Shown here: positions 36,936 to 53,730 of the stretch, piece after piece
How the letters are laid out: the number at the start of each line of letters is the position of its first letter
Position numbering within the stretch: the stretch's first letter is position 1
Assembly: GCA_050179755.1 (NCBI GenBank)
Contig: JBFXEV010000001.1
Span: forward strand, 613,940 to 677,939
DNA length: 64,000 nucleotides
Origin: Candidatus Babeliales bacterium
Lineage (GTDB): Bacteria > Babelota > Babeliae > Babelales > JBFXEV01
Direction of reading: 5' to 3'
Translations under genes and position numbers: made by a program
Notes under the pieces: model-generated
The model's database searches: none
Seen by the model: only the letters and a program-made list of their open reading frames with translations
Told to the model about the DNA's origin: nothing

Positions 36936-37009
36936 TATTGATCTCTCTATTTTTTAAGATGTTGTACTATTCTTAGTGTAGCGTGACTTAGCAATAGCGT
37001 CTAATGGAT

Positions 37010-37036: not shown

Positions 37037-37041
37037 TATTA

Positions 37042-39681
37042 TTATTTTATTCTGCCAATTTTAATTTTTGCCAGTTTATTGCTATCCAAGAATTTCTTGC
37101 ACGTTGCAAGAACGTCTTGCTTAGTAATTTTTGCAAGATGTTGTGCACGCGTATCGTAATAATCCATAGGCAAATGATAGCGTTCTAAGAATAAAAATGT
37201 TGCTGCAATGCTGCGGTTGGCCTCAAAGTTATTAACCATTGAATTGGCAAGTGCGTTATACGCTTGCGCAAATTCTTCATCATCAATGGTATTGCATGCG
37301 GTATTGATTGTATGTTCAATCGCTTTTTCAGCTTCTTCCAGTCTATCGAGTGAGACAATAGTTTTTATAAATACCATGCCAGGTTGTTTGTCGCTGCTGG
37401 CAAGCAAGGACCCGCCAATAGTATAAAAGAGCCCGGATTGTTCACGCAGCTCAAATAACCGAGAACTCATAGAGCCCAGCACGCCACCGGTGAATATTTG
37501 ATTGAATAACAGTAACTTATCGTATTCTGGATCAAGGCGAGAAACAGAAAGCCCTGCATAGGTGAGCACTATTTGATCGCGATTGATCGGGTAATTAAGA
37601 ACCTCTTGTTTTTCTATTGGCGCAAGTGGAGGGAAAACAGTTTCTTTAACTTCAGGGCCCTGCCATGCGCCGAGTGTGCGTTCAAGCAAAGCTGGAATAT
37701 CGTAGCCAGATAAATCACCCACAATTGCCATTATTGTGCCTTTTGGTGTGATGGCTTGCTTATAACATTGATTAAGAAGTTCTTGATCAATATTTTTAAG
37801 TGATTCGGGGGTGCCCATTGCTTGTTTTGCGTAGGGGTGGTTTTTATAAATAATCTCTTGTGCAAGTTGTGATGCAAACTCAGAAGGCGTATCCCAAAAG
37901 TTTTTAATGCTTGCATATAATTGCGAGCGCACTTTATTGATCGCTTCTTTAGGGAAATTGGATTCCGTTAAAATTTCAAGTAATAACCCAAGCCCTTTTT
38001 CAAGATCTTGGCTTAACATATTCATATTAATAAGCCCTGGTGATGCGCCAAAACTCATGCCGTTACTTTCAATCACATTGGCAAGCTGTTCGCCAGTATG
38101 TTTTTTAGTACCTTCAGAAAGCATGGCACTCATAAACATGTTGAGGCCTTGCAAGTCTTCTGGGTCATAATAATATTTTGTCTTTAAATCCAGAAGTAAC
38201 TCAACCTTAGGGATGTTTGGGTTATGGTAAAATAATATTTTTAAACCATTAGGCAGTGTAATTGATTGAGGTTTAGGGAAGTTAAATGGTTTTGGTTTGT
38301 CAGTGCAAATAGTATGCACGTGCACACCTTTTTCTACTTCAACTTCGCGCTTTATGCGTGAGAGCACGCGGGCATCTTCTTGGTCGGAGCGGTCTTGAAA
38401 ATGATGCCACAGATCTTTATCTTGGTCTTTGAATGGCAGCACTACGCCCGTATGCTCAAGCGTTGGGCGCACGAAGAAATGTATAATTTCTTTAATATCT
38501 TTTTCAATTTCTTCTGGGCTTTCAGTGCCATACGTAAACATAAAATTGGGTTCACCAAGTGCCAAGTAAGTTTGGCCGATGATATATGCCTGCTTTTGTG
38601 TGTTTTCAAGCACGGATAAGTATTTAGTTTTGGCTTGTTTTATGGCGCGCTTAAGCTCATCTTGGCTAAAGCCGTTTTGCGCAATATCTTCTAGCTGGGC
38701 ATTGATGATATCAGTAATTTTTTGTATATCTTTTGCATCGTTTGGTTGAAAGTAAATAAAGAGTATGCCGCAATCAAATAAGTCATACGTAAAAGCTTCA
38801 AGCTCAGTGCATAATTGCATTTCGTGTATAAGTTTTTTTTGTAATCGTGAGCTTTTGCCAAGCCCAATTAGCCAGCATAAAACTTCTAAGGCAAAGTCTT
38901 TGCTTGAACGTGCTCCAGGAACGGTAAAAGCAAGCGCTGCAAACGGTTGCTGCACGTCACGATAGATGGTTACCGATTTGCCACCAATTTCTGGTGAAAA
39001 GTAAAATTCTTCTTTTTTGTAATCAAAGTTTGGCTTAATACAACCAAACTCTTTTTCAGCTTCGGCAAATACTTGCTCAGGATCAACGTCACCCACCACA
39101 ACGAGCGTTGCATTATTGGGTATATAATGCTCTTTATAAAATGCAATAAGTTGATCGCGCTTTAGATTCCAGAGATCTTGTTTAAAGCCAATAATAGGGT
39201 GTTGGTACGGATGGCCAGAGAAAATGGATCCGATCATATCTTCAATAAGTGATGAAGTATAGTCATCGCGGTACATTTTAAGTTCCTGAATAACTGCCTT
39301 AAGTTCAGAATTTAATAGTTCTTCTTTAAAGGTGCAATTGGCCATGCAATCTGCCATAATAGGCAATGCTTGCCGCCAATTTTGGCTTGGTAGATTAAAT
39401 AAGTAGCCAGTGTAATCAAATGAAGTAAAGGCGTTACAATCACCAGAAAGCTTGTTCACGATCATATTAATATCTGACTCTGATAGCTTTTTGGTGCCCT
39501 TAAAGATCATGTGCTCAATTAAATGCGCAATGCCCTTTTGGCCAGTTTTTTCATCTTTGGAGCCTACGTTATACCAAAGTTGGATTGAGACCTTAGGTAT
39601 GTTATGGGTAGGTCTGACAAGAACTGTCAGACCATTTTTTAATTTTTTCTCAAATACGTGATTAATAGAAGCGTGTGTCAT
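37042..39681 (-). CDS. M16 family zinc peptidase without a signal peptide, 879 aa (paralog c)
   Basis: Starts MTHASINHVFEKKLKNGLTVLVRP with no hydrophobic leader. GIAHLIEHMIFKGT. Same two-half architecture. Confidence 0.88.
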   Translation of the reverse strand: MTHASINHVFEKKLKNGLTVLVRPTHNIPKVSIQLWYNVGSKDEKTGQKGIAHLIEHMIFKGTKKLSESDINMIVNKLSGDCNAFTSFDYTGYLFNLPSQNWRQALPIMADCMANCTFKEELLNSELKAVIQELKMYRDDYTSSLIEDMIGSIFSGHPYQHPIIGFKQDLWNLKRDQLIAFYKEHYIPNNATLVVVGDVDPEQVFAEAEKEFGCIKPNFDYKKEEFYFSPEIGGKSVTIYRDVQQPFAALAFTVPGARSSKDFALEVLCWLIGLGKSSRLQKKLIHEMQLCTELEAFTYDLFDCGILFIYFQPNDAKDIQKITDIINAQLEDIAQNGFSQDELKRAIKQAKTKYLSVLENTQKQAYIIGQTYLALGEPNFMFTYGTESPEEIEKDIKEIIHFFVRPTLEHTGVVLPFKDQDKDLWHHFQDRSDQEDARVLSRIKREVEVEKGVHVHTICTDKPKPFNFPKPQSITLPNGLKILFYHNPNIPKVELLLDLKTKYYYDPEDLQGLNMFMSAMLSEGTKKHTGEQLANVIESNGMSFGASPGLINMNMLSQDLEKGLGLLLEILTESNFPKEAINKVRSQLYASIKNFWDTPSEFASQLAQEIIYKNHPYAKQAMGTPESLKNIDQELLNQCYKQAITPKGTIMAIVGDLSGYDIPALLERTLGAWQGPEVKETVFPPLAPIEKQEVLNYPINRDQIVLTYAGLSVSRLDPEYDKLLLFNQIFTGGVLGSMSSRLFELREQSGLFYTIGGSLLASSDKQPGMVFIKTIVSLDRLEEAEKAIEHTINTACNTIDDEEFAQAYNALANSMVNNFEANRSIAATFLFLERYHLPMDYYDTRAQHLAKITKQDVLATCKKFLDSNKLAKIKIGRIK

Positions 39682-39768: not shown

Positions 39769-41202
39769 TTAAAGTAAGCGTGCTTGCAGCCCATCGAGAG
39801 TTACTTGTAAATTTCTAAGCGCTTTCGCCAGTTTATCTTTTTGCTGATCAGCTTGCGCACGCCTTGCAGCTTCTTCTTGTTCGCGCTGGAGTTTTTCAGC
39901 TTGTGCTCGCTGTGCATTTTCTTCTTGAATCTGTTTCAGCCTTGCTTCTTGCTCTAGCCTAACCTTTTCTTGTTGGCGTTTTTTTGCCTCTTCTAATTCA
40001 CGTTTTGCTTTTGCTTCTAATTCTCGTTTGCGTTTTTCTTCTGCTTGTTTTAAACGCTCTTGTTCTAAACGCAGTGCTTCTTGTTGCTGACGTTGGCCAT
40101 TTGTGGGTTGCGGTGGGGTTATCACTGGTTGCGTAGCACCTATTCGCTGATAAAAAAGCATATAGCTTTGATGTATACTTTCTCTGCCATTTTCACCCAT
40201 TATTTCCATTTGGTTCCAGTCCACTTCTTGTACTCGACTATCGTTGCAATAGTACCAGGTGTTATTAGATCGCACGTATGCAATGTAATGCCCCGCTCGT
40301 AGCTCACCCATCTGAACAATTGCACCAATTAAACGATAGTTTGGAGCATTTGTTGTTGGTTTTGCCATATAGGGGCCAAAATTTACCACTTCCTCTACGG
40401 TGATATTTTGTTCTAATTTCTTAAGCTGCCCACTAAAAGGATCTTGCTCAAAGCGCTTGAGTGCTATTATGACTATTTCATTAAGATGATTTATGGCGAT
40501 TCTTCTGTTGCAATTAGGGATTTCTTTTCTGTTATGTTTCAAAAGATCTTGCCGTTGTGTTTTTTCAGCATCACTTAAGTCAAGGCGATAATAGTTATTA
40601 GGATCATTCAGTTGTTCTGTTTTAAAGAAATTTTGTAAACACGCTTTCACTGTAGTTAAATTGCCAACTTCAGGACTTATGAATAATTCATAGTCAACGC
40701 GTGTACGTTCAAAATTAATACTGGGGCAGGCTACAATACTTGCCTGTCCATAATTGAGTATTTTCCCAATAGGATGATCTCTCTTTAATCTGTTGGGATC
40801 ACGATATTGTGCTCCTTGAAAGCGTGGATCTTCTTCCATAAGAAAGTTAAGTATGCGGCTTACAAATTCATGTGCATCCTGGTGCCCGCAACCACCCATT
40901 ACTTTATATGCATGATCATGTATAAAGGTATAAAGTGATTGATTATTTTGCCCAAGATCGCGGCCTTTGTTCATTTCTTTCATTAATTGTACAAAGCTTG
41001 CACTAAAGCTATTTGCAGGGTAAGCAATATTTTGAGTGAGTAAATAGTTTCTGAGCGGCACAGTGTTATACAAATTTTGCAACGTAGCATTAACATAACA
41101 TGTAGCGCCAAAGTTATTAAGGCCAGGCGGCCGTGCACAAAAAAGAATGTGACTTGAACAGCATATAAGAGACGCTAATATAATATATTTTTTTAAAACC
41201 AT
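39769..41202 (-). CDS. Signal-peptide-bearing ubiquitin-specific protease (USP/UBP, peptidase C19) with a C-terminal coiled coil
   Basis: AAAGGAA RBS. Signal MVLKKYIILASLICCSSHILFCA. Cys box GLNNFGATCYVNATLQNL, then GHQDAHEF, then His box GHYIAYVRSNNTWYYCNDSRV, then YMLFYQR. About 110 aa of E/K/R/Q-rich tail. Confidence 0.85.
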   Translation of the reverse strand: MVLKKYIILASLICCSSHILFCARPPGLNNFGATCYVNATLQNLYNTVPLRNYLLTQNIAYPANSFSASFVQLMKEMNKGRDLGQNNQSLYTFIHDHAYKVMGGCGHQDAHEFVSRILNFLMEEDPRFQGAQYRDPNRLKRDHPIGKILNYGQASIVACPSINFERTRVDYELFISPEVGNLTTVKACLQNFFKTEQLNDPNNYYRLDLSDAEKTQRQDLLKHNRKEIPNCNRRIAINHLNEIVIIALKRFEQDPFSGQLKKLEQNITVEEVVNFGPYMAKPTTNAPNYRLIGAIVQMGELRAGHYIAYVRSNNTWYYCNDSRVQEVDWNQMEIMGENGRESIHQSYMLFYQRIGATQPVITPPQPTNGQRQQQEALRLEQERLKQAEEKRKRELEAKAKRELEEAKKRQQEKVRLEQEARLKQIQEENAQRAQAEKLQREQEEAARRAQADQQKDKLAKALRNLQVTLDGLQARLL

Positions 41203-41231: not shown

Positions 41232-42866
41232 CTATTTACTCATATAGCTTGTGCATTTTTCTCTACCAAAAAAGAGACCAACCTTATGTAAATCAATATC
41301 TTTAAATTTATACCATGCAGCAATAAAATCTGAGGTAATATTAAGTCTTTTGGGCGTATGTTTTATTATTTTAGAGATACCTTTAGCAGCGGCAAGCATT
41401 TGGTTGAATATGCTGTCTACGCGTTGTAGCAATGTTTTTTTTCTAAAAAGAACCATATCTATACTGTTGTATAAATATTTATCGCAAAGATAATTTTTAT
41501 TGTTTTCGCATTTAAATTTCCAGGCGTAAAGATCGTTAGTAATATGTTCATGCGGTATTAACTCTTTTTTTGTTTTTTTATCAATGAATGGTTCACTTTG
41601 TGCAAAATTTAAATAAAACGCGTAGGCAAAAGTTCTTTCAAGCTCTGTAATGCAGGTGGGAATATCTAGGGCGTCAATAAGCTCGACCGATCCATTTGTA
41701 ATAATGAAATGCTCTTGTTTGCTTTCTCGTAGTATATCATTCAATATATGATTAATTTTGTTATATGTTAAAGAAATACAATGCACATTATCATATAATT
41801 GTTCTAATGATTTAAAAGAAACCCCTTCTTTTTTAGGGGGATTATAAATTATGTATATATCTTTAAAACCCGTTGCATGTTGTAGCAGTGAATTAATAAA
41901 ATTGTTAATTTGCTCAAGGTTGTTATCAGATAAAATTATTACATCTGCACGAGCAGTTTTATATTGAGCTAATCTGTTTAGTTTTGGTTCATTAATTTGT
42001 GGGTACTGAGGTCTGCTTCTAATGTCTTGGCTTGCAGGTTTAATAAGATGGTTAGTAAGTTTTGCGGTGAGAAAAGGATTTTCTCTATTGTAGATATAAA
42101 GAATGTCAGGAATGAATGCAAATTTATCACCGCACATTTCAAGCATAGGAAAATAGGTAGCTGCATCGTTGCCTAGCGGGAAAAATTTACCTTGATATCC
42201 TGGAACCTGTTCGTTGATCACGTCTTCTAATTTAATGTTCTTAAATAGCCATGCGTAAAACGTACGTAAATGTGTATAGACCCAACGGGGCCAAGTTCTG
42301 AAAGAGCGATTAGCGATAACGTTTGCAGGTACTGGTGTACAAATATCTGCTTGACTGCCATCATGACCTTTAAATTGCCCATAGGTGAGCCATACTTGTT
42401 TTTCTTGATATGTTCTATTTAAAATAGAAAAAACTTGATCATGTGCCAGCCAATCATCACCATCAACCTGCACAATGATTTCATTGTCATCACAAGTGTG
42501 AAATAAGTTATAAATATTTTTCATTTTCTTACAGCGTTTTGTATTGACTTGTAATGTTAATTTTTCGTGTAAATTGTGTAAATCAATGTATTGTTGCACA
42601 AGCATTGCAGTATTGTCGCTAGAGCCGTCATCAATATAAACGACTCTAAAGTTTGAGTAATCCTGCATAAAAATAGAGTCTAGATTTTTTTTTACCCATG
42701 GCTCATTATTGTAGGCACTTACAGAGATCACAAAGGGTAATTCTGTTGGTAATTTGATAGTTGCGTTGAGTTGGAGATATGTATTGACTATAACATATAT
42801 GAAACACAACTTATTTTTCATACCTAACTCCACTCTGGTTTTGGCACGGTTATTCTTTATGAACAT
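41232..42866 (-). CDS. Membrane-anchored family 2 glycosyltransferase with an unassigned C-terminal domain (paralog 1)
   Basis: Hydrophobic LCFIYVIVNTYLQL, then the GT2 core FVISVSAYNNEPWVKKNLDSIFMQDYSNFRVVYIDDGSSDNT and DGDDWL. About 270 aa of extra C-terminal region. Confidence 0.8.
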   Translation of the reverse strand: MFIKNNRAKTRVELGMKNKLCFIYVIVNTYLQLNATIKLPTELPFVISVSAYNNEPWVKKNLDSIFMQDYSNFRVVYIDDGSSDNTAMLVQQYIDLHNLHEKLTLQVNTKRCKKMKNIYNLFHTCDDNEIIVQVDGDDWLAHDQVFSILNRTYQEKQVWLTYGQFKGHDGSQADICTPVPANVIANRSFRTWPRWVYTHLRTFYAWLFKNIKLEDVINEQVPGYQGKFFPLGNDAATYFPMLEMCGDKFAFIPDILYIYNRENPFLTAKLTNHLIKPASQDIRSRPQYPQINEPKLNRLAQYKTARADVIILSDNNLEQINNFINSLLQHATGFKDIYIIYNPPKKEGVSFKSLEQLYDNVHCISLTYNKINHILNDILRESKQEHFIITNGSVELIDALDIPTCITELERTFAYAFYLNFAQSEPFIDKKTKKELIPHEHITNDLYAWKFKCENNKNYLCDKYLYNSIDMVLFRKKTLLQRVDSIFNQMLAAAKGISKIIKHTPKRLNITSDFIAAWYKFKDIDLHKVGLFFGREKCTSYMSK

Positions 42867-43040
42867 TTTATAGTAGTCATATTCAACAAAGCAAGATTTT
42901 GCCTGAATAGGCCAAAGAAAAGAGCATTCTATTTAATATAAGGGAATTTTATACATCTTGGCTTCTTAAATATTGTTTTTTTAAAGGTAATTAGATTACA
43001 GTTAATTTAAGAAAGAATAAATGTAAATTGAGGGGGGATA

Positions 43041-43724
43041 ATGAATAAAAGCGTTATATTGGCAAAATGTGGTATTTGTTTTTGGATGTTGCTGCCATTC
43101 AATAATAGTTTAGGCCTTGGGCGGCTGCAAAATAAAAAAAATAAAGTTCAAAGCGCGCAAGAGCGTGCATCAAAGGCAAAGAAGGCTTTATACAATACTT
43201 GCCCTACTGCCCCTAAAAACTTAAAAATAGCAACAGCACAGAGTTTGGCCGTTAGTAGGTCGTTTACTGATATATGGTCAATTTCAAAGGAATTATTTGA
43301 CTACATTACGCATTTGCTGCCTCAAGGTTCTACTATTTTAGAACTAGGGAGTGGTTGGGGGACTGGAGAACTTGCTAAAAAATATACCATGTATTCAATT
43401 GAGAATGATTCTAATTGGCTTCACAAGTATAAGAGCACGTATATTTTTGCTCCAATAATAGATGGATGGTATGATACTGCGGTACTCAGTAAACAGCTAC
43501 CAGAAAAATATGATCTTATATTAATTGATGGTCCTCCTGCTGCTATTGGCCGAAACAAATTCTATACAAATATTCATCTTTTTAATACAAATGTTCCTAT
43601 GATTTTTGATGACGTAAATAGACCTGACGAAAAGGCCTTACTTACACAAGTAGCAGCATATCTAAACAGACCATTCAAGATATGTAAAAGTAGAGGTAAG
43701 CAGTTTGGCGTGATTTTGCCATAA
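43041..43724 (+). CDS. Exported SAM-methyltransferase-like protein resembling DUF579 / Polysacc_synt_4 polysaccharide O-methyltransferases
   Basis: GAGGGGGG RBS. Signal-like ILAKCGICFWMLLPF. ILELGSGWGTG (motif I). YDLILIDGPPAAIGRN and FDDVNRPDEKAL resemble the xylan methyltransferase family blocks as I recall them. Confidence 0.55.
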   Translation: MNKSVILAKCGICFWMLLPFNNSLGLGRLQNKKNKVQSAQERASKAKKALYNTCPTAPKNLKIATAQSLAVSRSFTDIWSISKELFDYITHLLPQGSTILELGSGWGTGELAKKYTMYSIENDSNWLHKYKSTYIFAPIIDGWYDTAVLSKQLPEKYDLILIDGPPAAIGRNKFYTNIHLFNTNVPMIFDDVNRPDEKALLTQVAAYLNRPFKICKSRGKQFGVILP

Positions 43725-43741
43725 TTTGTAAATATTGTTTA

Positions 43742-44593
43742 TCAATGCCACGTCCCGGCATAGTAATGTATTGCCATCGTTTCTGGTTGAATAAGTATCT
43801 TATTTGACCAAGAAAAAAAGAAGTTACTAGGGAATATTATGTTTATTCCGGGGCATTCAGGCATATATGTATGGACCACACTGGTAAAAAAATCAGGCCC
43901 AACCCGATCTAATAAGTTGCTATTATTACGATAATTGGGAAGCTCCTCAATTATTTTTTGCATTAACGGGTGGTGTGGTGAACAGGCAATAATGCCATTT
44001 GCAAGACGCGCTTTATTTTTAAGCCGCTTGATTTCAAGAAGCCCTGCATAAAAATCACAATAATGATGTAGCCAATCAAATGGCTTAATACATTCAAAAT
44101 CTATATCAACGTAGAGGCCCCCAAATTGCTCTAATATTTCATAACGAAGAATGTCAGATTTTGCACCCCAATTTAATTCAAGATCGTAGTACTTTTGATT
44201 AATGAGTGTAATGTTTTTGAGATCCTCATTAGTCCATAATTTATATTCCCAATCAGGATTTAATTTTAACCAGCTTTTTTGCCATTTTTTGCAATGTTCA
44301 GGGAACGGTTTAGGGCCAATCCAAATTTGATGAATAATTTTTGGTATGCGGATTCTTTGATAATCTTCTTTATTAGAAACTATATGTTCTTGATATTGCT
44401 GCCGAAAAAATTCAAAAGGAATAGCTGCCGGATGACGTTTTGTGACGAGATTTTTATAAGTTTGTTCATCTATGCTGTGGCATACCATTGCTCTATCAAA
44501 AGATGGTATTTGTTGTTGTTTCTTGCTATTTGCTGATATCAGTGTGCAAAAAAAAAGGAAGAATGCTGTTTGTTTTTTTTTATTGAACTTCAT
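43742..44593 (-). CDS. Anchored GT32-type glycosyltransferase (Gly_transf_sug, DXD motif)
   Basis: MKFNKKKQTAFFLFFCTLISA leader. IPKIIHQIWIGPKPFP, NPDWEYKLWTNEDL, SDILRYEILEQFGGLYVDIDFE. Confidence 0.82.
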   Translation of the reverse strand: MKFNKKKQTAFFLFFCTLISANSKKQQQIPSFDRAMVCHSIDEQTYKNLVTKRHPAAIPFEFFRQQYQEHIVSNKEDYQRIRIPKIIHQIWIGPKPFPEHCKKWQKSWLKLNPDWEYKLWTNEDLKNITLINQKYYDLELNWGAKSDILRYEILEQFGGLYVDIDFECIKPFDWLHHYCDFYAGLLEIKRLKNKARLANGIIACSPHHPLMQKIIEELPNYRNNSNLLDRVGPDFFTSVVHTYMPECPGINIIFPSNFFFSWSNKILIQPETMAIHYYAGTWH

Positions 44594-45284
44594 GTAAGTC
44601 CTCTAATTTCCAAAGAGCTAAACTCTTAGTTATATACACAATATTAGTGTATTTTATTTCTTCAGTAATAAGTGCCAAAGGTTTTGGAAAATTAAAAGGT
44701 GATATTTCCAAATTGAGAGGTCTCCAGCCACCTACTTTTGGAATATCTTTATTTACAAGACAGCCTGGAAAAGTAGTAGTTAATAAATAGCGCGCACCAG
44801 ATGATTTAAAGTTTCTAAGTGCAGTCCAGATTTCTTCATAGGGAAAATGTACTAAACAGTCTCTGCACATTATTAAATCAGCTTTAGGTAATACATCTGT
44901 AAGAATGTTTGCATGAAAAAAACTTTTTTTTAGATCGGTAAAATGTGATTGATTTTTGGTAATAAGATCATCAACTATATCGATACCTATATAGTGATCT
45001 AATGCCGATAAATCTACATGTTGCAGCCAATTAAAATCGCCACAAGGAGCGTCTAAAAATACTTTAACTTTGTATGATTTTAGTAATTTAGGTATTTCTT
45101 GACGAATTTTTTGTGTTTCTTTGAGAGTTGAGCCTGGTCCAGAAACCGATTCTTTACTGCCCCAAGCATTTTGCTCATAAATAGTAGTAAAAATAGTTTC
45201 TGCTTCATTATTTAAAGCAAGACACGTAGGTGAGATAATACTTAAAAATAAGCATACGCGTATGTTTATTAAAAATTTGTTCAT
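44580..45284 (-). CDS. Exported class I SAM-dependent methyltransferase
   Basis: ATG 45282-45284 after GAAGG (the track start is TTG four codons earlier). Signal MNKFLINIRVCLFLSIISPTCLA. VFLDAPCGDFNW (motif I), IGIDIVD, DLIMCRDCLVH. 14-nt overlap with the GT32 start. Confidence 0.75.
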   Translation of the reverse strand: MNKFLINIRVCLFLSIISPTCLALNNEAETIFTTIYEQNAWGSKESVSGPGSTLKETQKIRQEIPKLLKSYKVKVFLDAPCGDFNWLQHVDLSALDHYIGIDIVDDLITKNQSHFTDLKKSFFHANILTDVLPKADLIMCRDCLVHFPYEEIWTALRNFKSSGARYLLTTTFPGCLVNKDIPKVGGWRPLNLEISPFNFPKPLALITEEIKYTNIVYITKSLALWKLEDLHEVQ

Positions 45285-45674
45285 TGCAACCTTCAATTTT
45301 TATGTGGTTTACTTTATATTACGAGACTACAACGCGAGCCTTTTTTAAGTCAATGGTTTATAAAAAAATAAGTATGTATGCGGCTATTATAGATGGCTTT
45401 AAGTCAAGGTTTGTTGCAAGATTGTGTAAGAGAGGTTTATCAATTATTAGTAATTGTGTGACATAGTGTAAATGAATTGCGTTAATACTGCATTATCTTT
45501 ATAAATTCTTACTGTTCAATTTAAGTAAAAGTTGGGTATTGTCATAGTAACCGCTCAAAATTTTAGGGGGAGTATTAGCTGAAAAATTTGCTTTTAGACT
45601 AATTATTTGCAAAGCTCATCAACGCTCATTAGAATATGTATCATATGATATAAATAAATTGGAGAAAAAGTTAT

Positions 45675-47252
45675 ATGGTACATTATATTACAAAACTTCG
45701 TTTAGTTTTGTGCATGGCAATAGTAATAGCGGGTGTGTTAATTGCAAAAACTTTACACCATCCTAAAGAATTGCCGCTTGTTATATCTGTTTGTGCTTAT
45801 AACGATGCGCGCTGGGTGGAAAAAAATCTTGATTCTATTTTTATGCAAAAATATTCCAATTATCATGTGGTGTATATTGATGATGCATCTACTGATAATA
45901 CTCCCGAAATAGTAAAAGAATACATTGCCAGGCACCATTTGGAAGATAAAATAACCTTACAGGTAAATCCTACGCGCTGTCGCAAGATGCAGAATATATA
46001 TAATTTATTTCATGCTTGTGATGATCATGATATCATTGTGCAAGTTGATGCGGATGATTGGTTGCCACATGATCAAATATTTTCTTTAATTAATAGTAAA
46101 TATCAAAATGAAAATATATGGCTCACCTATGGTCAATTTAGGGGTTATCCTAATAATAGAACGGGCCCTGTTAGAGCATTGCCCGAGCATGTAGTTGCAA
46201 CGGGAACATTTAGAGAATGGGGTTGGGAGTATCTTCATTTACGTACGTTTTATGCATGGTTATTTAAGAGTATTAAGTTAGAAGATTTTATTTCAGAGCT
46301 AACACCAGGGTTTGAGGGTAAATTTTTCCCGGTACAAAATGATAGCGCTTCTTATTATCCTATGCTTGAAATGGCAGGAAATAGAATAGAGTTTATTCCA
46401 GATATAACATATATATACAATGAAACTAATCCTTTGTGTGGAGTGCGGGTTGACTTTAAGTTGCATGAAAATACTGGTATTGATATTAAGAAGAATAGAA
46501 AAAAATATGCAAAACTAGACGCGCCCATTTATAACAGACTTGATGAGTTTCAAGGTGCTCAAGCTGATTTAATTATTCTGGCTCAAGATCCTTACAAAAA
46601 CTTGCTTGTACTGCTTGATTCAACATCTAAATTAAAGGGCATAAAAGACATATATGTAGTAGGTAACGAGCTTAATAAAACTGACTTGGAATCGCTGCAA
46701 TCTCGTTATACGAACGTTCGATTTATTTCGGCCCTTAAGGATACTTTTTGTGCCACATTACGTATGGCATTGCAAAAATGTAAGCAACAACATGTTGTAT
46801 TGTGTACTGATGCCCTATTTGTGCAGGATCCTATAGATGTGTGTCAGTGCATATTAGAATTAGAAAAAACATTCGCACATGGTTTTTATTTAGGTTTTTC
46901 TCATGCTGGTTTCCCCTTTAATAATGAAAACACTGATGCAAGACTAATGGATCAGCATGTACATGATAATATCTATACATGGAAATTTAATTGTAGTTAT
47001 GATCAGTTATGTAATAATATTGATATGACCTTATTACGTAAGCAAAGCGTATTGAAAGATCTTAATCAGATTGAGCAAAAGTTATCAGATGATAACATGC
47101 AATCTTTCATAATTTCATGGCAAAACAAGGAACATTCCAATATGAAAAATATCGGCTTGTTTTTTGATACGTTAAAAGTAGGTGGTTTGCATAGTCAACC
47201 ACAGCAAACATTGCTTGCTTATAATGCGCGAGGGAAGAATTTAATAATATAA
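45675..47252 (+). CDS. Membrane-anchored family 2 glycosyltransferase with an unassigned C-terminal domain (paralog 2)
   Basis: GGAGAAAAAG RBS. TM LRLVLCMAIVIAGVLIA. LVISVCAYNDARWVEKNLDSIFMQKYSNYHVVYIDDASTDNT, DADDWL. Collinear with 41232-42866. Confidence 0.8.
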   Translation: MVHYITKLRLVLCMAIVIAGVLIAKTLHHPKELPLVISVCAYNDARWVEKNLDSIFMQKYSNYHVVYIDDASTDNTPEIVKEYIARHHLEDKITLQVNPTRCRKMQNIYNLFHACDDHDIIVQVDADDWLPHDQIFSLINSKYQNENIWLTYGQFRGYPNNRTGPVRALPEHVVATGTFREWGWEYLHLRTFYAWLFKSIKLEDFISELTPGFEGKFFPVQNDSASYYPMLEMAGNRIEFIPDITYIYNETNPLCGVRVDFKLHENTGIDIKKNRKKYAKLDAPIYNRLDEFQGAQADLIILAQDPYKNLLVLLDSTSKLKGIKDIYVVGNELNKTDLESLQSRYTNVRFISALKDTFCATLRMALQKCKQQHVVLCTDALFVQDPIDVCQCILELEKTFAHGFYLGFSHAGFPFNNENTDARLMDQHVHDNIYTWKFNCSYDQLCNNIDMTLLRKQSVLKDLNQIEQKLSDDNMQSFIISWQNKEHSNMKNIGLFFDTLKVGGLHSQPQQTLLAYNARGKNLII

Positions 47253-47282
47253 TTTTTGCATATGGTAAATAAGGAATATGCG

Positions 47283-48713
47283 ATGTCGACTAGTCTTTTT
47301 AAGCGACAATGCACTAATACGTTCTTTTTTGGAGCAACCGCCATTTTTACAAAGGGCATTTGGCTTATTGCAATGCCCACTATTCTCAATAAACTTACCG
47401 TGCACGATGTTGGCGTATTTGATTTTTACCAATCCATATTTTTGATTGGTAGTTTAATGATATCTTCATTGACTGCACAGCCACTTCTCCGATTTTATCT
47501 TAAACACCGTAATGAACCAGATTTGCAGCGTGCCACCATTGGAGCAAGCAGTGTAATTATTGCGCTGTGCACAGCACTTTGCTTTGTGTTCGCGGCCCTA
47601 ACATTTGCGCGTTATAGTTTTTGTGGTGATTGTTATTACGTGATGTTTCTTTTTGTAAATGCGGGGCTATTTGCATGTTTTTCATGTGCAACGTCGTTTT
47701 ATCAGATTCGTGAACGCATACAAGAATATGTGTTGCTTTATAGCGCGCAAAGTATTTTGGCATTAGCACTTGTGTTTACAGGCTTGCGTCTTGGGTATGG
47801 CATGCCGGTACTATTTTGGGCTAATAGCATTTCTTATTTATTATGTATGCCAGCGCTGCGCGTGTTTTTTACGCACATTCGTTTGTGTGATACGCGCGCT
47901 GTATACGAGCAACTTGTGTTTGGTATGCCGCTGTTTGCTTATAATATACTCTATATGTTATTGTTTGCGGTGGATCGTTGGTATTTGGCGGCAACGCAAG
48001 GCTATGAGATAGTGGGTGTATACGCGATATTGTGGTATTTTGGTAGAATTTTTGTCTATGGCACTTTAGCGCTTTATGAAGCAAGTCCTATACTATTGTA
48101 TAATGTGCAGCACGAGCATGATGGCAATCGCATTATTGCGCGAACTATTAAGTATATTACTCTCGCGTATGTGACTGGCGCATTAATGGTTACACCCTGC
48201 GCTTATATACTGCTTTCACAATTTTTGCCAGCGTATAAGCATTTGATTTGCTATGTGCCGCTCTTTATTACGCCACTTTTGTTTATAGAGACGGGCAAAT
48301 TTTGGCAAGCGGGATTTAACTTGGCAACTCAAACAAAGCATATTCCTTTTATTACGTTGAGCACTCTACTTTTACAACTTGGCGGGCTTTATTTCTTAGG
48401 CCAGTGGGGATTGGTTGGTGTGCTGTATGCCAATGGTTTTGCCTTTATGTGTTATGCCCTCATGAATGCTGTTGGCAGCGCGTATATATATGATAAAATG
48501 CTATTTGACGTGCGGGAGCTGGGCACTATGTTTGTGCTCTATGGTATTTATACCTTATTTTTTTGGTACGCACTCTCTACCCCCTTTCCTATCGTATGCT
48601 TTTTTGTAGGGGCCTTTACCTGGCCGATTGTGCTATGGTTTTCAGGGGTTTTGTCAGCCGACGAAAAGGTGTATATATTACAAATATTCAAAAAAATGTT
48701 GCCAGTGGCTTAG
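47283..48713 (+). CDS. Polysaccharide/oligosaccharide flippase (Wzx-like, MOP superfamily)
   Basis: ATG 47283 six nt after AAGGAA (the track ORF starts at TTG 47256). About 12-14 hydrophobic segments throughout. Visibly higher G+C than the preceding GT genes. Confidence 0.7.
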   Translation: MSTSLFKRQCTNTFFFGATAIFTKGIWLIAMPTILNKLTVHDVGVFDFYQSIFLIGSLMISSLTAQPLLRFYLKHRNEPDLQRATIGASSVIIALCTALCFVFAALTFARYSFCGDCYYVMFLFVNAGLFACFSCATSFYQIRERIQEYVLLYSAQSILALALVFTGLRLGYGMPVLFWANSISYLLCMPALRVFFTHIRLCDTRAVYEQLVFGMPLFAYNILYMLLFAVDRWYLAATQGYEIVGVYAILWYFGRIFVYGTLALYEASPILLYNVQHEHDGNRIIARTIKYITLAYVTGALMVTPCAYILLSQFLPAYKHLICYVPLFITPLLFIETGKFWQAGFNLATQTKHIPFITLSTLLLQLGGLYFLGQWGLVGVLYANGFAFMCYALMNAVGSAYIYDKMLFDVRELGTMFVLYGIYTLFFWYALSTPFPIVCFFVGAFTWPIVLWFSGVLSADEKVYILQIFKKMLPVA

Positions 48714-48911: not shown

Positions 48912-49466
48912 ATGAATAAGCAAATTATGGCAGTAGTAATGTGTGCGGCAATCACTTTTTCCGGTGAAATTTCGGCTGCAAAGCAGCTTTATGATCAACA
49001 TGACCGTAAAGCAATAGAAACGTGGGTTGCAAATTATTACAAGTCACTTTCTTCTCAACAAAAACAAGCTATTCTTGCAATAAGTAAAGCAAATCTTAAA
49101 ATGCTTGAAACAAGTAAAATAGCCTTGCAACATCACTCCGCCAAGGAGTTATTCACCCCCGCAGAATTGAAACGTTTAATGCAATTCTGGACGCAAAGTG
49201 GTGAACTCATTAAAGACCAAGGAGCTCTTGAAGTCCTTGATGTCGCTTGTGCGCTGAATGCACTAACCCAATTAAGACTTAATTGGTTTAAAAAAATTGT
49301 AACAACTTATCAAAAAGAACCTGGAATGATGGAAAACATTGGTGCTTACTTTACAGAAAAAGGTAAATATAAACTGTATCGTGAACTAAATATGTTATTT
49401 AAATCAACAAAAGAAATAATTGAGCAATGTATGCTCTTTGAACAAGAATTGTTAAAATCGTTTTAA
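48912..49466 (+). CDS. Hypothetical exported helical protein (184 aa)
   Basis: GAGGAA RBS. Signal MNKQIMAVVMCAAITFSGEISA. No family recognised. Confidence 0.55.
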   Translation: MNKQIMAVVMCAAITFSGEISAAKQLYDQHDRKAIETWVANYYKSLSSQQKQAILAISKANLKMLETSKIALQHHSAKELFTPAELKRLMQFWTQSGELIKDQGALEVLDVACALNALTQLRLNWFKKIVTTYQKEPGMMENIGAYFTEKGKYKLYRELNMLFKSTKEIIEQCMLFEQELLKSF

Positions 49467-49476
49467 TTATAAAAAT

Positions 49477-50496
49477 ATGAAATATTACATGAAACATATA
49501 GGTAAAATATTGGTGGTTGCACTGTTATGTGCAACCACGTTTGTGCAAGCTGAAGTATCTGTGCAAGAAAAAATAAACAATAAACTTGAGCATTATATTG
49601 CTCCTGAGAATCAGGCAAAGTTTTTAGAGTTAGATGCTTTTTTGATTCATAATGGTGCTCCAGAGCAGCGTGCTTTAATGAATGAGATTGATAAAAATAT
49701 AGTTTTACTAGCGCGTACCTATCTCAATTTTTTTGATAATTTAATAATAAGCAATGAAGATTTAATTCTAGAAATAGGCCAAATCTGCAGTGAGGATAAT
49801 CCAGCTCATATAGATAGGGCACTTGAGCTAACAGGAACTTGTTTTGCTTTGGGTGACGTATTTAATGCGGTAGTTAAATGTGCCAATGATAAAGGAATGG
49901 CTGCAGTGGATACAAGAACGTTTACCACAAGCGGCCAATACATATGCTTTTTTGAAGAGTTAGTAGCATGCTCATGCGCTATATCTGAGTGTTTGGCTCG
50001 TGCGTGCGGAGAAAGTAAGCAACGAGTTTCTTTACATCCTTTATCTAGTGATGAATCAAATGAAATTATAAAAACATTTTCAGATCAGTTTAATGCACTC
50101 ACACTGCAAAGCCAGTTGTTACTCAAAAAAATTGTGCGTCCTCTTAATGATTGTATGCAACAAGCTAAAGAAATGCAGTTGACTTTATTTGATAAGTCTT
50201 TGTATTTTCTGGACATGATGAAGTTGCAGCAACAAATTGATTTTGACTCTGTTATACTGCAATTTTTCGCACATCGAGTTAACACACTTCAAAGAAGATA
50301 TGAATTCAATGAAGAATTATTAAAACTGACTCAAGAATATAATGAATTCAACAGAATTTTTAATAAGCCAAAGCAGGAAGATATAATGCAACTCCTGCAT
50401 ATGTGTAAGCGTGCGATGAAAATGACTCAAGAGTATTTGGAAACTGTTCTGCAAAAACTTGATACTGTTGAAACACAAATAGCCGTATTATCTTAG
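49477..50496 (+). CDS. Hypothetical exported helical protein (339 aa), paralog of 50624-51553
   Basis: Signal GKILVVALLCATTFVQA. The segment FLELDAFLIHNGAPEQRALMNEIDKNIVLLARTY aligns by eye with YFALENYLAHEASEDVRKMVRVLEQDTFKIMHMY of the next gene. Confidence 0.6.
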   Translation: MKYYMKHIGKILVVALLCATTFVQAEVSVQEKINNKLEHYIAPENQAKFLELDAFLIHNGAPEQRALMNEIDKNIVLLARTYLNFFDNLIISNEDLILEIGQICSEDNPAHIDRALELTGTCFALGDVFNAVVKCANDKGMAAVDTRTFTTSGQYICFFEELVACSCAISECLARACGESKQRVSLHPLSSDESNEIIKTFSDQFNALTLQSQLLLKKIVRPLNDCMQQAKEMQLTLFDKSLYFLDMMKLQQQIDFDSVILQFFAHRVNTLQRRYEFNEELLKLTQEYNEFNRIFNKPKQEDIMQLLHMCKRAMKMTQEYLETVLQKLDTVETQIAVLS

Positions 50497-50523
50497 TCGC
50501 GCATTAATAAATAATTTTTTATG

Positions 50524-50557
50524 GCCGGTATGATTTTCTTCATACCGGCTTTTTTTC
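50524..50557 (+). terminator. Rho-independent terminator
   Basis: Perfect 10-bp stem GCCGGTATGA/TCATACCGGC (50524-33 / 50540-49), 6-nt loop, then T7. Confidence 0.85.
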
Positions 50558-50623
50558 TGTAATCCTGCCCAATTTTCTGTTATGCTGATTCAATCTATTT
50601 AAATTAACATCAAAGGAGTCTGC

Positions 50624-51553
50624 ATGTTCACAAATGTAAAGTTTTTACTTTCTACTTTATTATTTACCATTTCTTTCATACAAGCTTATAGTCAGGACAT
50701 GTATTACCAAGACGAGCGTCTAGCAGAGTTTCGCAAGCAAGAAGAAGAGCGGTATTTTGCTCTGGAGAATTATTTAGCGCATGAAGCCTCAGAAGATGTA
50801 AGAAAAATGGTAAGAGTATTGGAGCAAGATACTTTTAAAATAATGCATATGTATGGTGAGATTATTGAAAGTTTAGTGATTAAAACACGCCCTTTAGTAG
50901 AAAAAGCTTGCGCCAATTCAGTAATGCCTGTTTTATCTATCACTGGTAGCATAGGTTCATTATGTATAGAAATTGATGATATTGCTAAAAAATATTTTTT
51001 TATTGAAGAAGAACGTGATTTAATGCAACAAGATGCTATAGAAGAGTTTATTGCTTATATTAATAATAGGCTTGAACAATTTTTTGCTTTGATTGATGGA
51101 CTGTCCAATCACGAAGGACATAGAAATGTTTCTTTGCTAACAATAGATAATGAACTTAAGAATTCAATATACGATCAATTTAATAATATTTTTTTAAAGA
51201 CAGATGCTTTAAGTCAACAAGTATTTAGTATTATGCTTCAAGAAATTAAAGAGTCAATTCCGTTATTACAGCATAGGTATAGTCAATTTTTGCATGATAT
51301 GCTTGTATTGAGAGAGCACGTTAATTGTGATTCAGAAACATTTGTGCTTTTTGTAGATTGTCGATTAGAAAGAATGGGTACCAAATTTAAAGAGTGTTTA
51401 TTTTATCAAGATGAAGAATATGCGAAATATTTTGACATCAGAGCGTTTGAAAATCTAACACCGCAAGATATAACATTATTATTTGCGATGTTTCTTAAAA
51501 ATGTAGATAGGTGTAAAGAAACAGCCTGGCAAGAATATAATAATCTAGTTTAA
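50624..51553 (+). CDS. Hypothetical exported helical protein (309 aa)
   Basis: AAAGGAG RBS. Signal MFTNVKFLLSTLLFTISFIQA. Paralogous to 49477-50496. Confidence 0.6.
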   Translation: MFTNVKFLLSTLLFTISFIQAYSQDMYYQDERLAEFRKQEEERYFALENYLAHEASEDVRKMVRVLEQDTFKIMHMYGEIIESLVIKTRPLVEKACANSVMPVLSITGSIGSLCIEIDDIAKKYFFIEEERDLMQQDAIEEFIAYINNRLEQFFALIDGLSNHEGHRNVSLLTIDNELKNSIYDQFNNIFLKTDALSQQVFSIMLQEIKESIPLLQHRYSQFLHDMLVLREHVNCDSETFVLFVDCRLERMGTKFKECLFYQDEEYAKYFDIRAFENLTPQDITLLFAMFLKNVDRCKETAWQEYNNLV

Positions 51554-52158
51554 TCTATCGTTAGAACAGCAGCATATATTTTTTTATGATAATATGTTTT
51601 TGTTGTTCCTAAATTACATAATAACTTTTTAATTGAGCAGGGCAAAATCATATGATTGCCCTGTTCTTCTTTATTGCGGTAAAATCGCCATACTTCAAAC
51701 ACATTAAATGGATTAAATTCAAGAATAATAAGTTGCCCGTTTGGCGCCAGATGATCGGTGAGTGTTTTTAGCAAGTTCTTACGTTGATCTTTTTGTATGT
51801 GATGAAGAACGTTTGCCATATATATTATATCAAATTGTCCCGCAAAAGATTTTGAAAAGCGAAGCTTTTCATTTTTGGTTCCATACCACCCTTGTGCAAT
51901 TTCAATTAATTCATCTGATGTATCAACGCCTTGAATCTGTGCTTGCGGCAGCAAAGCACTCAGAATATATGCCATGGTGCCATCACCACAACCATAATCA
52001 AGAATAGTTGCAGGGTTAGTGCCCTGTTTATTCAGTATTTTTGTTATAATGTGCGCTTGATATTCAGCAAAAAAAGCAGCTTGCTCTCCAGCGAGTTCTA
52101 ATGCATGCTCCAGTGCCTCTTGATATAAATTATCAGTTCTAAAAGGTTCCATATACAT
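51550..52158 (-). CDS. Class I SAM-dependent methyltransferase (cytoplasmic)
   Basis: ILDYGCGDGTMAY (motif I), GVDTSDELIE, FDIIYMANVLHH. 4-nt convergent overlap with the previous gene. Confidence 0.8.
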   Translation of the reverse strand: MYMEPFRTDNLYQEALEHALELAGEQAAFFAEYQAHIITKILNKQGTNPATILDYGCGDGTMAYILSALLPQAQIQGVDTSDELIEIAQGWYGTKNEKLRFSKSFAGQFDIIYMANVLHHIQKDQRKNLLKTLTDHLAPNGQLIILEFNPFNVFEVWRFYRNKEEQGNHMILPCSIKKLLCNLGTTKTYYHKKIYAAVLTID

Positions 52159-52266: not shown

Positions 52267-53730
52267 ATGGTGAATAGTAAGAAATTAAGAATAGCTTCTC
52301 TGGTGATAGCATTCTCTGTAGTGGGAATAAGCATACAGGCTAATATAACCCTTGATCAAGTAAATATTGCTAAAGTACAACATAAACAAAATGTTATGCC
52401 AGTGGCCATTATTGGTGCTGGGCCTGCAGGTTTAAGCGCTGCCGTATATACTGCACGCAGTGGATTGCCAACGTATGTTTTTACTAATGATGCTCCTGGT
52501 GGCCATTTAATGGATATTAAGCAAATTGAAAATTGGCCCGCATTACCAAAAACATCTGGTGAAGATATTGCCAAAAAATTACAAGATCAAGCACTCAGTT
52601 TTGGTGCTCAGATGGTTAATGATGGCGTGGCCTCAGTAAATTTTGATGTGTATCCTTTTGAAATTAAAACTACTAATGATGAAACGGTGTATGCATTATC
52701 GGTGATTATTGCCACAGGGTTTATGCAAGAAAAGCTTGATATTCCTGGTGCGCAAAAATATTGGGGAAATGGTATAGGTTTATGTACCATTTGTGATGCG
52801 CCGTTTGCAGCTGGCCAAGATGTGGTAGTGGTGGGAGATGATGATTTTGCTGCAGAGCGTGTTATTCAATTGGCTGAATTTGCAAATAATGTGATCATGG
52901 TTACGCGTAAGAAAAAATTATCAGTTAATGCAACAACCATTGGCGATTTAAACCGTTTGAAAAATGCCGAACTTATTGTTGGGCATGAAGTTACCGAAGT
53001 AGAAGGTGACGGTTCACGTGTGACTGGCGTACGCTTGCGTAATTTAGAAGCCGGTAGTGAGCGAACTATTCCGGTTTCAACAGTTTATTTAAACAGCGTT
53101 TATAAACCAGACTCTGCATTTTTAAAAGGTCAAATTCCTATGGATGGAGAAGGTTATATTTTACGTCAGCCTGATTCACAACAAACACTTATTCCAAGCA
53201 TATTTGCAGCCGGTGCGGTTACCAATAAACCAAACAAAGCAGGTCCTTCGGCAGGTTTTGGTATGGCAGCGGCAGTAGAGCTTATTGAATTTATGCATAA
53301 AACTGTTGGTTTTAACTCAGAAGTGAGTAAGGATCTTGAGCAGTTATATTATAAATCACCACAAAAACGCAAAATGAGCAGTAGTGATCAAGTGACTTCA
53401 CGTACTCAACTTGCTGAAGTATTTAAGAAAAAACCAATTACCGTACTCTTTGCTTATTTACCAATGTGCCCATATTGCAGAGCTATGTATCCAGACATGC
53501 TTGACGCGGTACATGATTTTGGCGATGTTGTAACGCTTGTTAAATTAAATGCGAGTGAAAGCAATGATTTAACGCAGAACCTCACGTTTGATAGCGTACC
53601 AACAACGTTTATTTATAGAGATGGCGTGTTAGTGCATACTATCCGCGGCAGAGCAAATAAATTAGCAATCTCTAAAGTGCTTTCAAGCATTGCTGAGCAA
53701 GTGAAATCAGATAAAGAGGCTGCCAAGTAA
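52267..53730 (+). CDS. Thioredoxin-reductase-like flavoprotein fused to a C-terminal thioredoxin-fold domain, with an N-terminal signal/anchor
   Basis: AAGAGGGAG RBS. LRIASLVIAFSVVGISIQA leader. FAD motif VAIIGAGPAGLSAAVY. Redox CTIC (GLCTICDA). The second Rossmann motif is degenerate (VVVVGDDDFAAE). The C-terminal domain carries CPYC (LPMCPYCRAM). Confidence 0.8.
   Translation: MVNSKKLRIASLVIAFSVVGISIQANITLDQVNIAKVQHKQNVMPVAIIGAGPAGLSAAVYTARSGLPTYVFTNDAPGGHLMDIKQIENWPALPKTSGEDIAKKLQDQALSFGAQMVNDGVASVNFDVYPFEIKTTNDETVYALSVIIATGFMQEKLDIPGAQKYWGNGIGLCTICDAPFAAGQDVVVVGDDDFAAERVIQLAEFANNVIMVTRKKKLSVNATTIGDLNRLKNAELIVGHEVTEVEGDGSRVTGVRLRNLEAGSERTIPVSTVYLNSVYKPDSAFLKGQIPMDGEGYILRQPDSQQTLIPSIFAAGAVTNKPNKAGPSAGFGMAAAVELIEFMHKTVGFNSEVSKDLEQLYYKSPQKRKMSSSDQVTSRTQLAEVFKKKPITVLFAYLPMCPYCRAMYPDMLDAVHDFGDVVTLVKLNASESNDLTQNLTFDSVPTTFIYRDGVLVHTIRGRANKLAISKVLSSIAEQVKSDKEAAK

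Follow-up and report, generated by a model that had tools for sequence, protein, structure and literature searches.

Signal-like N-termini on glycosyltransferases and methyltransferases of a Babeliales bacterium: a possible glycan synthesis toolkit outside the bacterial cytoplasm

Textbooks place Leloir glycosyltransferases, nucleotide-sugar dehydrogenases and dehydratases, and S-adenosylmethionine (SAM)-dependent methyltransferases in the bacterial cytoplasm, the only compartment in which their co-substrates exist. Dependentiae (TM6) are obligate intracellular parasites of protists. Here we describe six adjacent genes from a metagenome-assembled genome (MAG) of Candidatus Babeliales (Dependentiae), a source given by the NCBI record of one of the encoded proteins, GT2-B, which lies on a contig of 1.53 Mb. 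The genes occupy positions 41232-48713 of a 64,000-nt stretch of contig JBFXEV010000001.1, which was analysed as a whole and is called the window below. They encode two paralogous GT2 glycosyltransferases (GT2-A and GT2-B), a GT32 glycosyltransferase, two SAM-methyltransferase-like proteins (MT and P2) and a weakly Wzx-like membrane protein. Each of the five soluble enzymes begins with a segment that resembles a signal peptide. We propose that they belong to an exported Leloir-type glycosylation and methylation toolkit which would work outside the bacterial cytoplasm, fed by host UDP-sugars and SAM; we believe this about as much as we doubt it.

The closest functional precedent, by analogy, seems to be Chlamydia trachomatis, whose GlgA and other secreted glycogen enzymes draw on host UDP-glucose within the lumen of the inclusion (Gehre et al. 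2016, PMC4829429). There, as is proposed here from sequence, nucleotide-sugar-dependent enzymes act outside their own cytoplasm on a host nucleotide sugar. However, the chlamydial enzymes leave by type 3 secretion and not by Sec, and they comprise GT5 and glycogen enzymes that make a storage glucan, whereas here we deal with GT2, GT32 and MT, joined in relatives by UGDH, Gmd and Fcl. TcdA/TcdB, Legionella Lgt1-3 and SetA are also delivered to the host cytosol and use host UDP-sugars. They have a GT-A DXD motif, as do the enzymes here, and it is at this motif that our GT32 matches the TcdA_TcdB Pfam. But they depend on their own translocation domains or on a type IV system and are single transferases acting on host proteins, unlike the present set with its Sec-type signal, many paralogues, fusions and accompanying methyltransferases and nucleotide-sugar enzymes. 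In Golgi type II glycosyltransferases and in the plant DUF579/GXM methyltransferases the catalytic domain is non-cytosolic and sits behind an N-terminal hydrophobic segment, as we propose here; in contrast to the Golgi type II enzymes, our proteins have a short signal of the cleavable type and no stem. Giant viruses have genes for UGDH and Gmd/GMER, and their glycosylation takes place in the host cytoplasm without need of the endoplasmic reticulum and Golgi. Their GT2/GT32/methyltransferase sets (Mimiviridae/Klosneuvirinae, chloroviruses) invite comparison, since homologues of GT2 and P2 are common on large viral contigs, though only as bare domains lacking the signal peptide. Outside endosymbionts the giant-virus and large-virus glycosyltransferases appear to be the closest relatives in sequence and structure. 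A description of signal-tagged Leloir enzymes in Dependentiae was not found in the searchable literature.

The six open reading frames (ORFs) were recovered at precisely the coordinates given earlier by the original prediction, which had described a glycan synthesis and methylation island; the family assignments support such a cluster. GT2-A lies on the minus strand (41232..42866) and has 544 aa from the first ATG or, in the NCBI model, 529 aa from M16; its signal-like N-terminus is MKNKLCFIYVIVNTYLQLNA, with putative cleavage before T. P2, on the plus strand (43041..43724, 227 aa), consists of signal-like residues 1-25, a basic linker of about 50 aa and a class-I-methyltransferase-like core at residues 79-227. 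GT32 (43742..44593, minus strand, 283 aa) begins with MKFNKKKQTAFFLFFCTLISA, where cleavage may occur before NS. MT (44580..45296, minus strand) has 238 aa from a TTG or 234 aa from an ATG and starts with MNKFLINIRVCLFLSIISPTCLA, with a putative cleavage site before LN; its 3' end overlaps the start of GT32 by 14 nt, as had been noted. GT2-B (45675..47252, plus strand, 525 aa) is signal-like at residues 1-24 (45675-45746). It was thought to be an inverted paralog of GT2-A, and indeed the two share 43% identity from end to end and are encoded on opposite strands. The gene for the Wzx-like polytopic membrane protein (47256..48713, plus strand, 485 aa) follows it at a spacing of 4-9 nt.

Signal status was assigned by a sequence rule of our own (a positive n-region, an h-region of at most 18 aa and a -3/-1 site), applied to the five proteins and to about 300 homologues. 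Sec geometry was taken to mean a positively charged n-region, 7-15 aa of h-region and small residues at positions -3 and -1. Each of the five soluble enzymes has at its start the basic and hydrophobic stretch that had been predicted, and ordinary homologues do not have it. From the likely starts the n-region holds 2-4 K/R (six in GT2-A if the upstream ATG is used), the h-region has 10-15 aa, and a small-residue (AxA-type) -3/-1 site is found in 5/5. No further transmembrane (TM) segments were seen in these five proteins beyond the N-terminus. Among the roughly 300 signal-bearing homologues from the four families, h-regions have a median length of 13 aa (interquartile range 11-15) and fewer than 6% reach 19 aa. 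The charge of the n-region is +1.6 to +2.1, the 15 residues after the h-region being neutral or acidic, and 86-98% of members have the -3/-1 site. In GT2 proteins the first beta-strand (xKPlVVvIPSYNN) comes about 10 to 20 residues past the h-region, with no stem. Given the short h-regions, the AxA-like sites and the missing stem, the N-termini are best described as having the geometry of cleavable Sec signal peptides, and neither that of a Golgi type II anchor nor that of an N-out tether.

Two layouts had been offered for these segments, that of Golgi type II enzymes and that of exported effectors. On geometry the exported layout is the best reading. The Golgi layout has to be abandoned, as such an anchor would span about 18-22 aa and be followed by a stem. 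Other explanations were also considered and rejected. Neither a lipobox nor an RR motif is visible, as would be expected for a lipoprotein or a Tat signal. Nor are the segments likely to come from mis-called starts: an extension with n-h-c character is kept in homologues down to 30% identity, and in GT2-B and P2 the next Met past the h-region falls inside the catalytic core.

How surprising is it that all five enzymes are tagged? By the same rule 25 of the 50 ORFs of the window are signal-like, among them ankyrin, TPR, M16 peptidase, GMC oxidoreductase and TrxR-Trx proteins. EF-P, NusB, SHMT and Ndk are not flagged, and neither is a 202-aa class I methyltransferase (51550-52158, minus strand; Methyltransf_23/12/25/11, above cut-off). 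The latter has no signal, so that not every methyltransferase of the region is tagged, and it serves as an internal negative control. The rule itself is specific: in control loci from viruses and free-living bacteria it flags 2-4% of the ORFs. In Chromulinavorax (Dependentiae), the one relative that has been studied well, 44% of coding sequences carry a predicted signal; only Sec is evident in this bacterium, which replicates in the host cytoplasm and sheds outer-membrane vesicles (PMC6561590). The chance probability that five of five enzymes are signal-like is about 0.016-0.03, and with a baseline near 50% this count is only weakly non-random. One could therefore suppose that there is no functional unit here, and that five unrelated members of a half-tagged proteome are adjacent by chance. 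The baselines (25/50 in the window, 57-61% in related loci, 44% in Chromulinavorax) and a p of about 0.03 would permit this, as would the fact that the six-gene composition is not conserved elsewhere. Yet in each family the signal is kept in homologues as low as 30% identical, fusions join GT2, GT32 and P2, the MT and GT32 genes overlap, and GT2, GT32 and UGDH are recurrent neighbours in many genomes. We consider chance adjacency very unlikely.

In contrast to the weak count of five out of five, the comparative distribution of the signal is strong evidence. Every family divides in two: members from endosymbiont-type genomes bear the signal, and those from elsewhere are bare catalytic domains. 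In 185,579 species genomes a scan detected 255 relatives of GT2, and 100 of the 120 closest homologues have a hydrophobic N-terminus; an exact look-up of one paralogue, P0046, returned no record. The full two-domain form of GT2 is found in Dependentiae/Babeliales, Chlamydiota and further MAGs with longest contigs of up to about 1-1.9 Mb. Six free-living homologues (Deltaproteobacteria, Binataceae, Acidobacteriaceae) have about 245 aa, start at beta1 and possess neither the hydrophobic N-terminus nor the C-terminal domain. In IMG/VR the GT2 domain alone occurs in 390 stretches (30-43% identity) and P2 in 95 (36-56% identity); a hydrophobic N-terminus was seen in none of the 82 GT2 ORFs and none of the 83 P2 ORFs examined there, while most of the approximately 50 to 60 closest cellular homologues of P2 have one. 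For GT32 the hydrophobic N-terminus is present in 100 of 150 representatives, the others beginning at the IHQIWLG core. Homologues of MT from Bacillaceae (203 aa, about 50% identity) likewise begin at the catalytic core.

A rough neighbour-joining tree of 226 GT2 domains gathers the viral and free-living sequences that lack a signal into two clades (62 and 28 leaves), with the signal-bearing ones outside both. Such grouping suggests that the signal was gained in one or a few events per family. If so, the independent evidence is to be counted in families and not in sequences. The top matches in BFVD are multi-domain glycosyltransferases of Terrestrivirus, Yasminevirus and Megaviridae. A eukaryotic origin, which had been raised, is not indicated, the nearest signal-less relatives being on large viral contigs, in giant viruses and in free-living bacteria. 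The original prediction had also allowed that the segments might turn out to be uncleaved N-out anchors, with routine O-antigen enzymes of free-living bacteria as the closest homologues; we find neither to be the case.

Bare GT2 domains of 245 aa and P2 domains of 155-175 aa occur widely on viral contigs of large size (up to about 550 kb). Some of these contigs are labelled giant-virus MAGs, and tandem duplicates occur at times (L163:3971-5469). A tblastn search of 50,697 isolated phage genomes returned no match to P2 and one weak match to GT2; from this near-absence, the viral relatives do not seem to be ordinary cultured phages. In some Chlamydiota/'Verrucomicrobia' MAGs (L050, L058, L066, L035) the two-domain GT2 carries TM-like N-terminal segments of about 18-19 aa followed by a linker of 20-25 aa, and these look more like an anchor than a cleavable signal.

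Profile search matches both GT2 proteins to PF00535 (52.3 bits for GT2-A and 67.5 bits for GT2-B, cut-off 23.3). Residues D70, D74, D125, D127, D128, D223 and E232 (GT2-B numbering), which include the DXD motif and the catalytic acidic residues, are invariant across 68 GT2 sequences. GT2-B was modelled with AlphaFold2 at a pLDDT of 93.6 over the whole protein. Its N-terminal catalytic domain (45771-46520; about 41991-42740 in GT2-A) has a GT-A fold, matched by Foldseek with probability 1.0 to TarS, RmlT, PmHS2 and K4CP. The remainder of the protein (46521-47210; about 41277-41990 in GT2-A) had been left unassigned with the suggestion that it be searched by structure. This turned out to be informative. 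Modelled alone (pLDDT 91.3), the C-terminal domain of about 230 aa matches TarP, RmlT and SpsA in Foldseek (E 1e-7, TM 0.5-0.6) and, on this model, is a second, sequence-degenerate GT-A fold. Profiles of the domain gave no significant sequence match against PDB and Pfam.

For the whole protein the best Foldseek matches are enzymes with two GT-A domains, namely PmHS2, K4CP, COLGALT1 and LARGE1 (E 2e-18 to 6e-10). The tandem architecture is thus shared with these enzymes, but identity to them is 9-15% and the orientation of the domains differs (TM about 0.3). Moreover, PmHS2 and K4CP are cytoplasmic and lack the signal that GT2 has here. The closest single-domain structural neighbours of both GT2 domains are TarS, TarP, RmlT, SpsA and WrtF. 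The N-terminal domain keeps the GT2 DXD motif and the catalytic Asp. These five neighbours are, however, cytoplasmic proteins of 10-17% identity with no signal peptide. In the C-terminal domain the catalytic DXD and the nucleotide-binding residues are not conserved and there are no invariant columns. The sole partly conserved Asp is D379 (82%), at the first DXD position. Without a DXD motif or invariant acidic residues, the domain is probably not a second active site. We infer that it is non-catalytic or highly divergent; perhaps it is an acceptor-binding module.

The other three enzymes were assigned with varying ease. GT32 matches PF04488 (Gly_transf_sug; 54.8 bits, cut-off 23), and its DXD motif is D163-I-D165. 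A match to the TcdA_TcdB catalytic Pfam (PF12919, 32.6 bits) covers 25 residues around this motif only, in a protein of 283 aa, and we rejected the idea that GT32 is a toxin of the TcdA/TcdB type. For MT the Pfam methyltransferase matches stay below the gathering score (24 vs 27 bits), but phrog_3382 'methyltransferase' matches over the full length with E 1e-53. There are 7349 homologues, those with a name being called class I methyltransferases by NCBI/UniRef, and the motif VFLDAPCGD is present. We assign this 238-aa protein as a class I SAM methyltransferase. P2 is more difficult. It has no significant match in Pfam or NCBIfam, a weak profile match to KsgA-type methyltransferases (E 0.002) and scattered sub-threshold matches to methyltransferase Pfams including MetW and Methyltransf_24. 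Its motifs are ILELGSGWGT, which is like motif I (LELGSGxGT), and LILIDGP. The layout of these motifs resembles that of DUF579, but the label 'DUF579-like' has no statistical support: when the P2 family was compared with IRX15/GXM (PF04669, PF21729), the best E was 0.14, in 1 of 48 members, with none for the protein of the window. P2 is best called a small class-I-methyltransferase-like protein.

Do these enzymes act together? Fusions of GT2 with GT32 (about 830 aa; P0026-28, P0031) exist, as does a 508-aa fusion of signal peptide (SP), GT32 and P2 in one Babeliales MAG (L007:4356-5882). Because of such fusions, joint action of the enzymes is supported, and the fusion of P2 to GT32 also suggests that P2 has a glycan substrate. 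Tandem arrays are common in relatives: 78 loci hold 167 ORFs of the family, with GT32 in 17 of these loci. Together the fusions and arrays would indicate stepwise synthesis of one methylated glycan. Other fusions found in Babeliales/TM6 MAGs are SP-unknown-GT32 (554 aa, L042:3671-5335) and SP-unknown-MT (395 aa, L059:7988-9175).

The signal is not restricted to transferases. Of the 78 related loci, 12 have UDP-glucose dehydrogenase (UGDH) next to the GT2 array, and a hydrophobic extension directly precedes its GTGYVGL motif in 12/12 by eye and in 10/12 by the formal rule. The same genome has a second glycosyltransferase cluster of about 35 kb (L241:1-22475, L242:1-21647; Logan SRR27751815_238706) that contains GT4, five GT2 paralogues, a GT2-GT32 fusion, two or three GT32, a tagged GNAT and a tagged UGDH. 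In this UGDH the NAD domain starts at residue 32 (profile position 2), after MKFRSITLLSLLVFAQSHA. A cultured isolate of Candidatus Dependentiae, Noda2021 (AP025250.1; L244:7608-15665), has Gmd, Fcl, UGDH and NUDIX proteins tagged with signal-like extensions of 20-35 aa, together with two GT2 proteins of the family. Gmd matches TIGR01472 with 578 bits from residue 21, and the GDP-fucose synthase Fcl scores 499 bits (cut-off 500) from residue 29; the NUDIX protein is weakly like GDP-mannose mannosyl hydrolase. Ribonucleotide reductase subunits, a 248-aa DPM-like GT2 and an FkbM methyltransferase at the same locus are untagged. With UGDH, Gmd, Fcl, GNAT and MT all bearing the segment, enzymes that need UDP-glucose, GDP-mannose, NAD(P), SAM and acetyl-CoA appear to be tagged together.

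Several further features of these loci deserve mention. The Noda2021 locus also holds an ankyrin protein and an LRR protein. At the end of the 35-kb cluster are NUDIX, a genuine MurJ, an ABC ATPase, IS605 OrfB/TnpB and Lon, none of them tagged. A tandem set of four or five signal-tagged paralogues (440-497 aa; L241:12478-18929, L243:694-7875) that match no Pfam family lies by the glycosyltransferase arrays in two Babeliales genomes; they share the motif ...H.ITY..N..FH..YLR... After them come two or three further proteins, also signal-tagged, of about 300 aa and faintly similar to HipA_2 kinases.

A more conventional view is that we are looking at an envelope polysaccharide cluster in which an uncleaved N-terminal helix tethers each enzyme at the cytoplasmic face and the Wzx-like protein flips a lipid-linked glycan. 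The content of glycosyltransferases, methyltransferases and a MOP-like protein agrees with this, as does the translational coupling of GT2-B to the Wzx-like gene. The GC content of the island is slightly below that of its flanks (0.32-0.37 vs 0.38-0.42), as in many polysaccharide loci, and AlphaFold builds residues 2-26 as a single helix. But h-regions of 10-15 aa are too short to span a membrane, the positive charge on their N-terminal side implies an N-in/C-out orientation, and AxA-like sites are present. Soluble UGDH, Gmd and Fcl need no tether and nevertheless bear the same segment, and the free-living homologues lack it.

At the position of the predicted flippase there is a polytopic membrane protein, with at least 8 strong TM segments in a strict hydropathy scan (a MOP flippase would be expected to have 12-14). 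Its score to PF01943 is below threshold (25.3 bits vs cut-off 28.2), and it matched nothing in NCBIfam or PDB. Nor is its position next to GT2 conserved: no Wzx homologue was found within 6 kb of the GT2 arrays (167 family ORFs, 78 related loci). Profile search of the island ORFs revealed no initiating phosphoglycosyl transferase, Wzy polymerase or chain-length regulator. On these grounds a Wzx/Wzy-dependent O-antigen or capsule locus was rejected, and we regard the tethered envelope cluster in general as quite improbable.

The island directly abuts, as had been stated, a gene for a ubiquitin-specific protease (USP, of the UCH type; 39769..41202, minus strand) with a signal-like N-terminus, which lies 29 nt away and matches PF00443 with E 2e-39. 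Three signal-tagged proteins of 184, 339 and 309 aa are encoded directly downstream of the Wzx-like gene (48912..51553, plus strand); they belong to no Pfam family and have no homologue in the 78 related loci. Neither Wzx nor USP nor these three proteins were found by the GT2 arrays of those loci, and hence the island of six genes is not conserved as a whole. Little speaks for its horizontal acquisition: its GC content is only slightly lowered, and the sole tRNA sits 36 kb away.

The presence of the protease brings up another possibility, that the enzymes are host-directed effectors which, after Sec export and release, modify host proteins or glycans instead of building a bacterial glycan. In addition to the adjoining signal-tagged deubiquitinase, the region is rich in ankyrin and TPR proteins, GT32 has its TcdA_TcdB match around the DXD motif, paralogues in the tandem arrays diversify fast, as is typical of effectors, and the gene content around the arrays is not conserved. 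On the other side, that match is confined to its 25 residues, the fusions of several glycosyltransferases and the company of UGDH, Gmd, Fcl, GNAT and methyltransferases resemble synthesis of a complex glycan and not the modification of a protein with a single sugar, and the structural neighbours of GT2 (TarS, TarP, RmlT, PmHS2, K4CP) modify polymers. We judge effectors of this kind to be unlikely, if less so than the alternatives above.

We return to the exported toolkit. The absence of the signal from viral and free-living relatives suggests that sugar chains are made outside the bacterial cytoplasm from host-supplied blocks. The locus would then be part of the Sec-dependent secretome of a presumed obligate intracellular Babeliales bacterium, in which four ordinary cytoplasmic families (GT2, GT32 and two class-I SAM-methyltransferase families) each gained a signal of the cleavable type, GT2 gaining in addition a second, probably non-catalytic GT-A module. 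By their sequence geometry the enzymes would cross the inner membrane. Their place of action may then be a periplasm with exchange of small molecules between bacterium and host, but the bacterial surface, or the host cytosol once the enzymes are released, is the more probable site. The tagged UGDH, Gmd and Fcl of relatives are consistent with the use of host UDP-/GDP-sugars and SAM, from which a glycan would be assembled and O-methylated stepwise. Its acceptor could be a component of the bacterial envelope, a secreted protein or a host molecule. Eukaryote-directed neighbours (USP, ankyrin) bear the same kind of signal, and as the substrate of a USP is eukaryotic, this indicates that tagged proteins of this bacterium reach the host.

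Several points weigh against this proposal. Nucleotide sugars, SAM and NAD(P) are not, to our knowledge, available in the bacterial periplasm. In Dependentiae-type loci 57-61% of the ORFs of at least 200 aa are signal-like, so that the glycosyltransferase and methyltransferase genes are not enriched over their neighbours. Adaptation to an oxidising compartment is not apparent either, signal-bearing GT2 domains showing no enrichment in Cys (4.0 vs 4.1 per domain) and no clear conserved pair. Finally, the translational coupling of the Wzx-like gene to GT2-B is a better fit to the classical pathway in which a glycan is made in the cytoplasm and then flipped.

Other genes of the window give an idea of its general character. 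A thioredoxin-reductase-like/thioredoxin fusion (52267-53730, plus strand; Pyr_redox_2 + Thioredoxin) and a GMC-family FAD oxidoreductase (75-2288, minus strand) both have signal-like N-termini and appear to be further cofactor-dependent enzymes of 'cytoplasmic' type with apparent export. Positions 30294-39681 of the minus strand encode three M16 (insulinase-like) peptidases in tandem, each about 880 aa long. Two have hydrophobic signal-like N-termini, of which the formal rule passes one (the other has an h-region of 19 aa); the third (37042-39681) has no hydrophobic N-terminus. A run of seven tandem genes (16391-22446, minus strand) encodes six small proteins (137-299 aa) and one of 642 aa, with hydrophobic N-termini in 7/7, of which the formal rule flags 6/7, and TPR repeats in 5/7; these look like a paralogous effector family. 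An ankyrin-repeat protein (25552-26535, plus strand) has a signal-like N-terminus, in agreement with Chromulinavorax, 78% of whose ankyrin proteins are reported to be signal-bearing.

Whatever the glycan may be, the analysis defines a large uncharacterised family with two GT-A domains, more than 250 genomic relatives and tandem arrays, and a small Pfam-less methyltransferase-like family, P2, which giant viruses also have. A broader version of the proposal can be offered tentatively, and with rather more doubt than belief. Dependentiae and some Chlamydiota-like endosymbionts may run an entire Leloir pathway (UGDH, Gmd, Fcl, GT-A enzymes and O-methyl-/acetyl-transferases) outside their own cytoplasm, fed by host-cytosolic UDP-glucose, GDP-mannose, SAM, NAD(P) and acetyl-CoA. 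It would be a bacterial counterpart of the cytoplasmic glycosylation of giant viruses, built from families that it shares with those viruses. If such a phylum-wide gain of Sec signals, family by family, is true, obligate intracellular bacteria could move the making of glycans into a compartment that the host supplies. This would explain how bacteria with almost no metabolism decorate themselves or their host, and would give a concrete function to part of the enormous unexplained secretome of Dependentiae.

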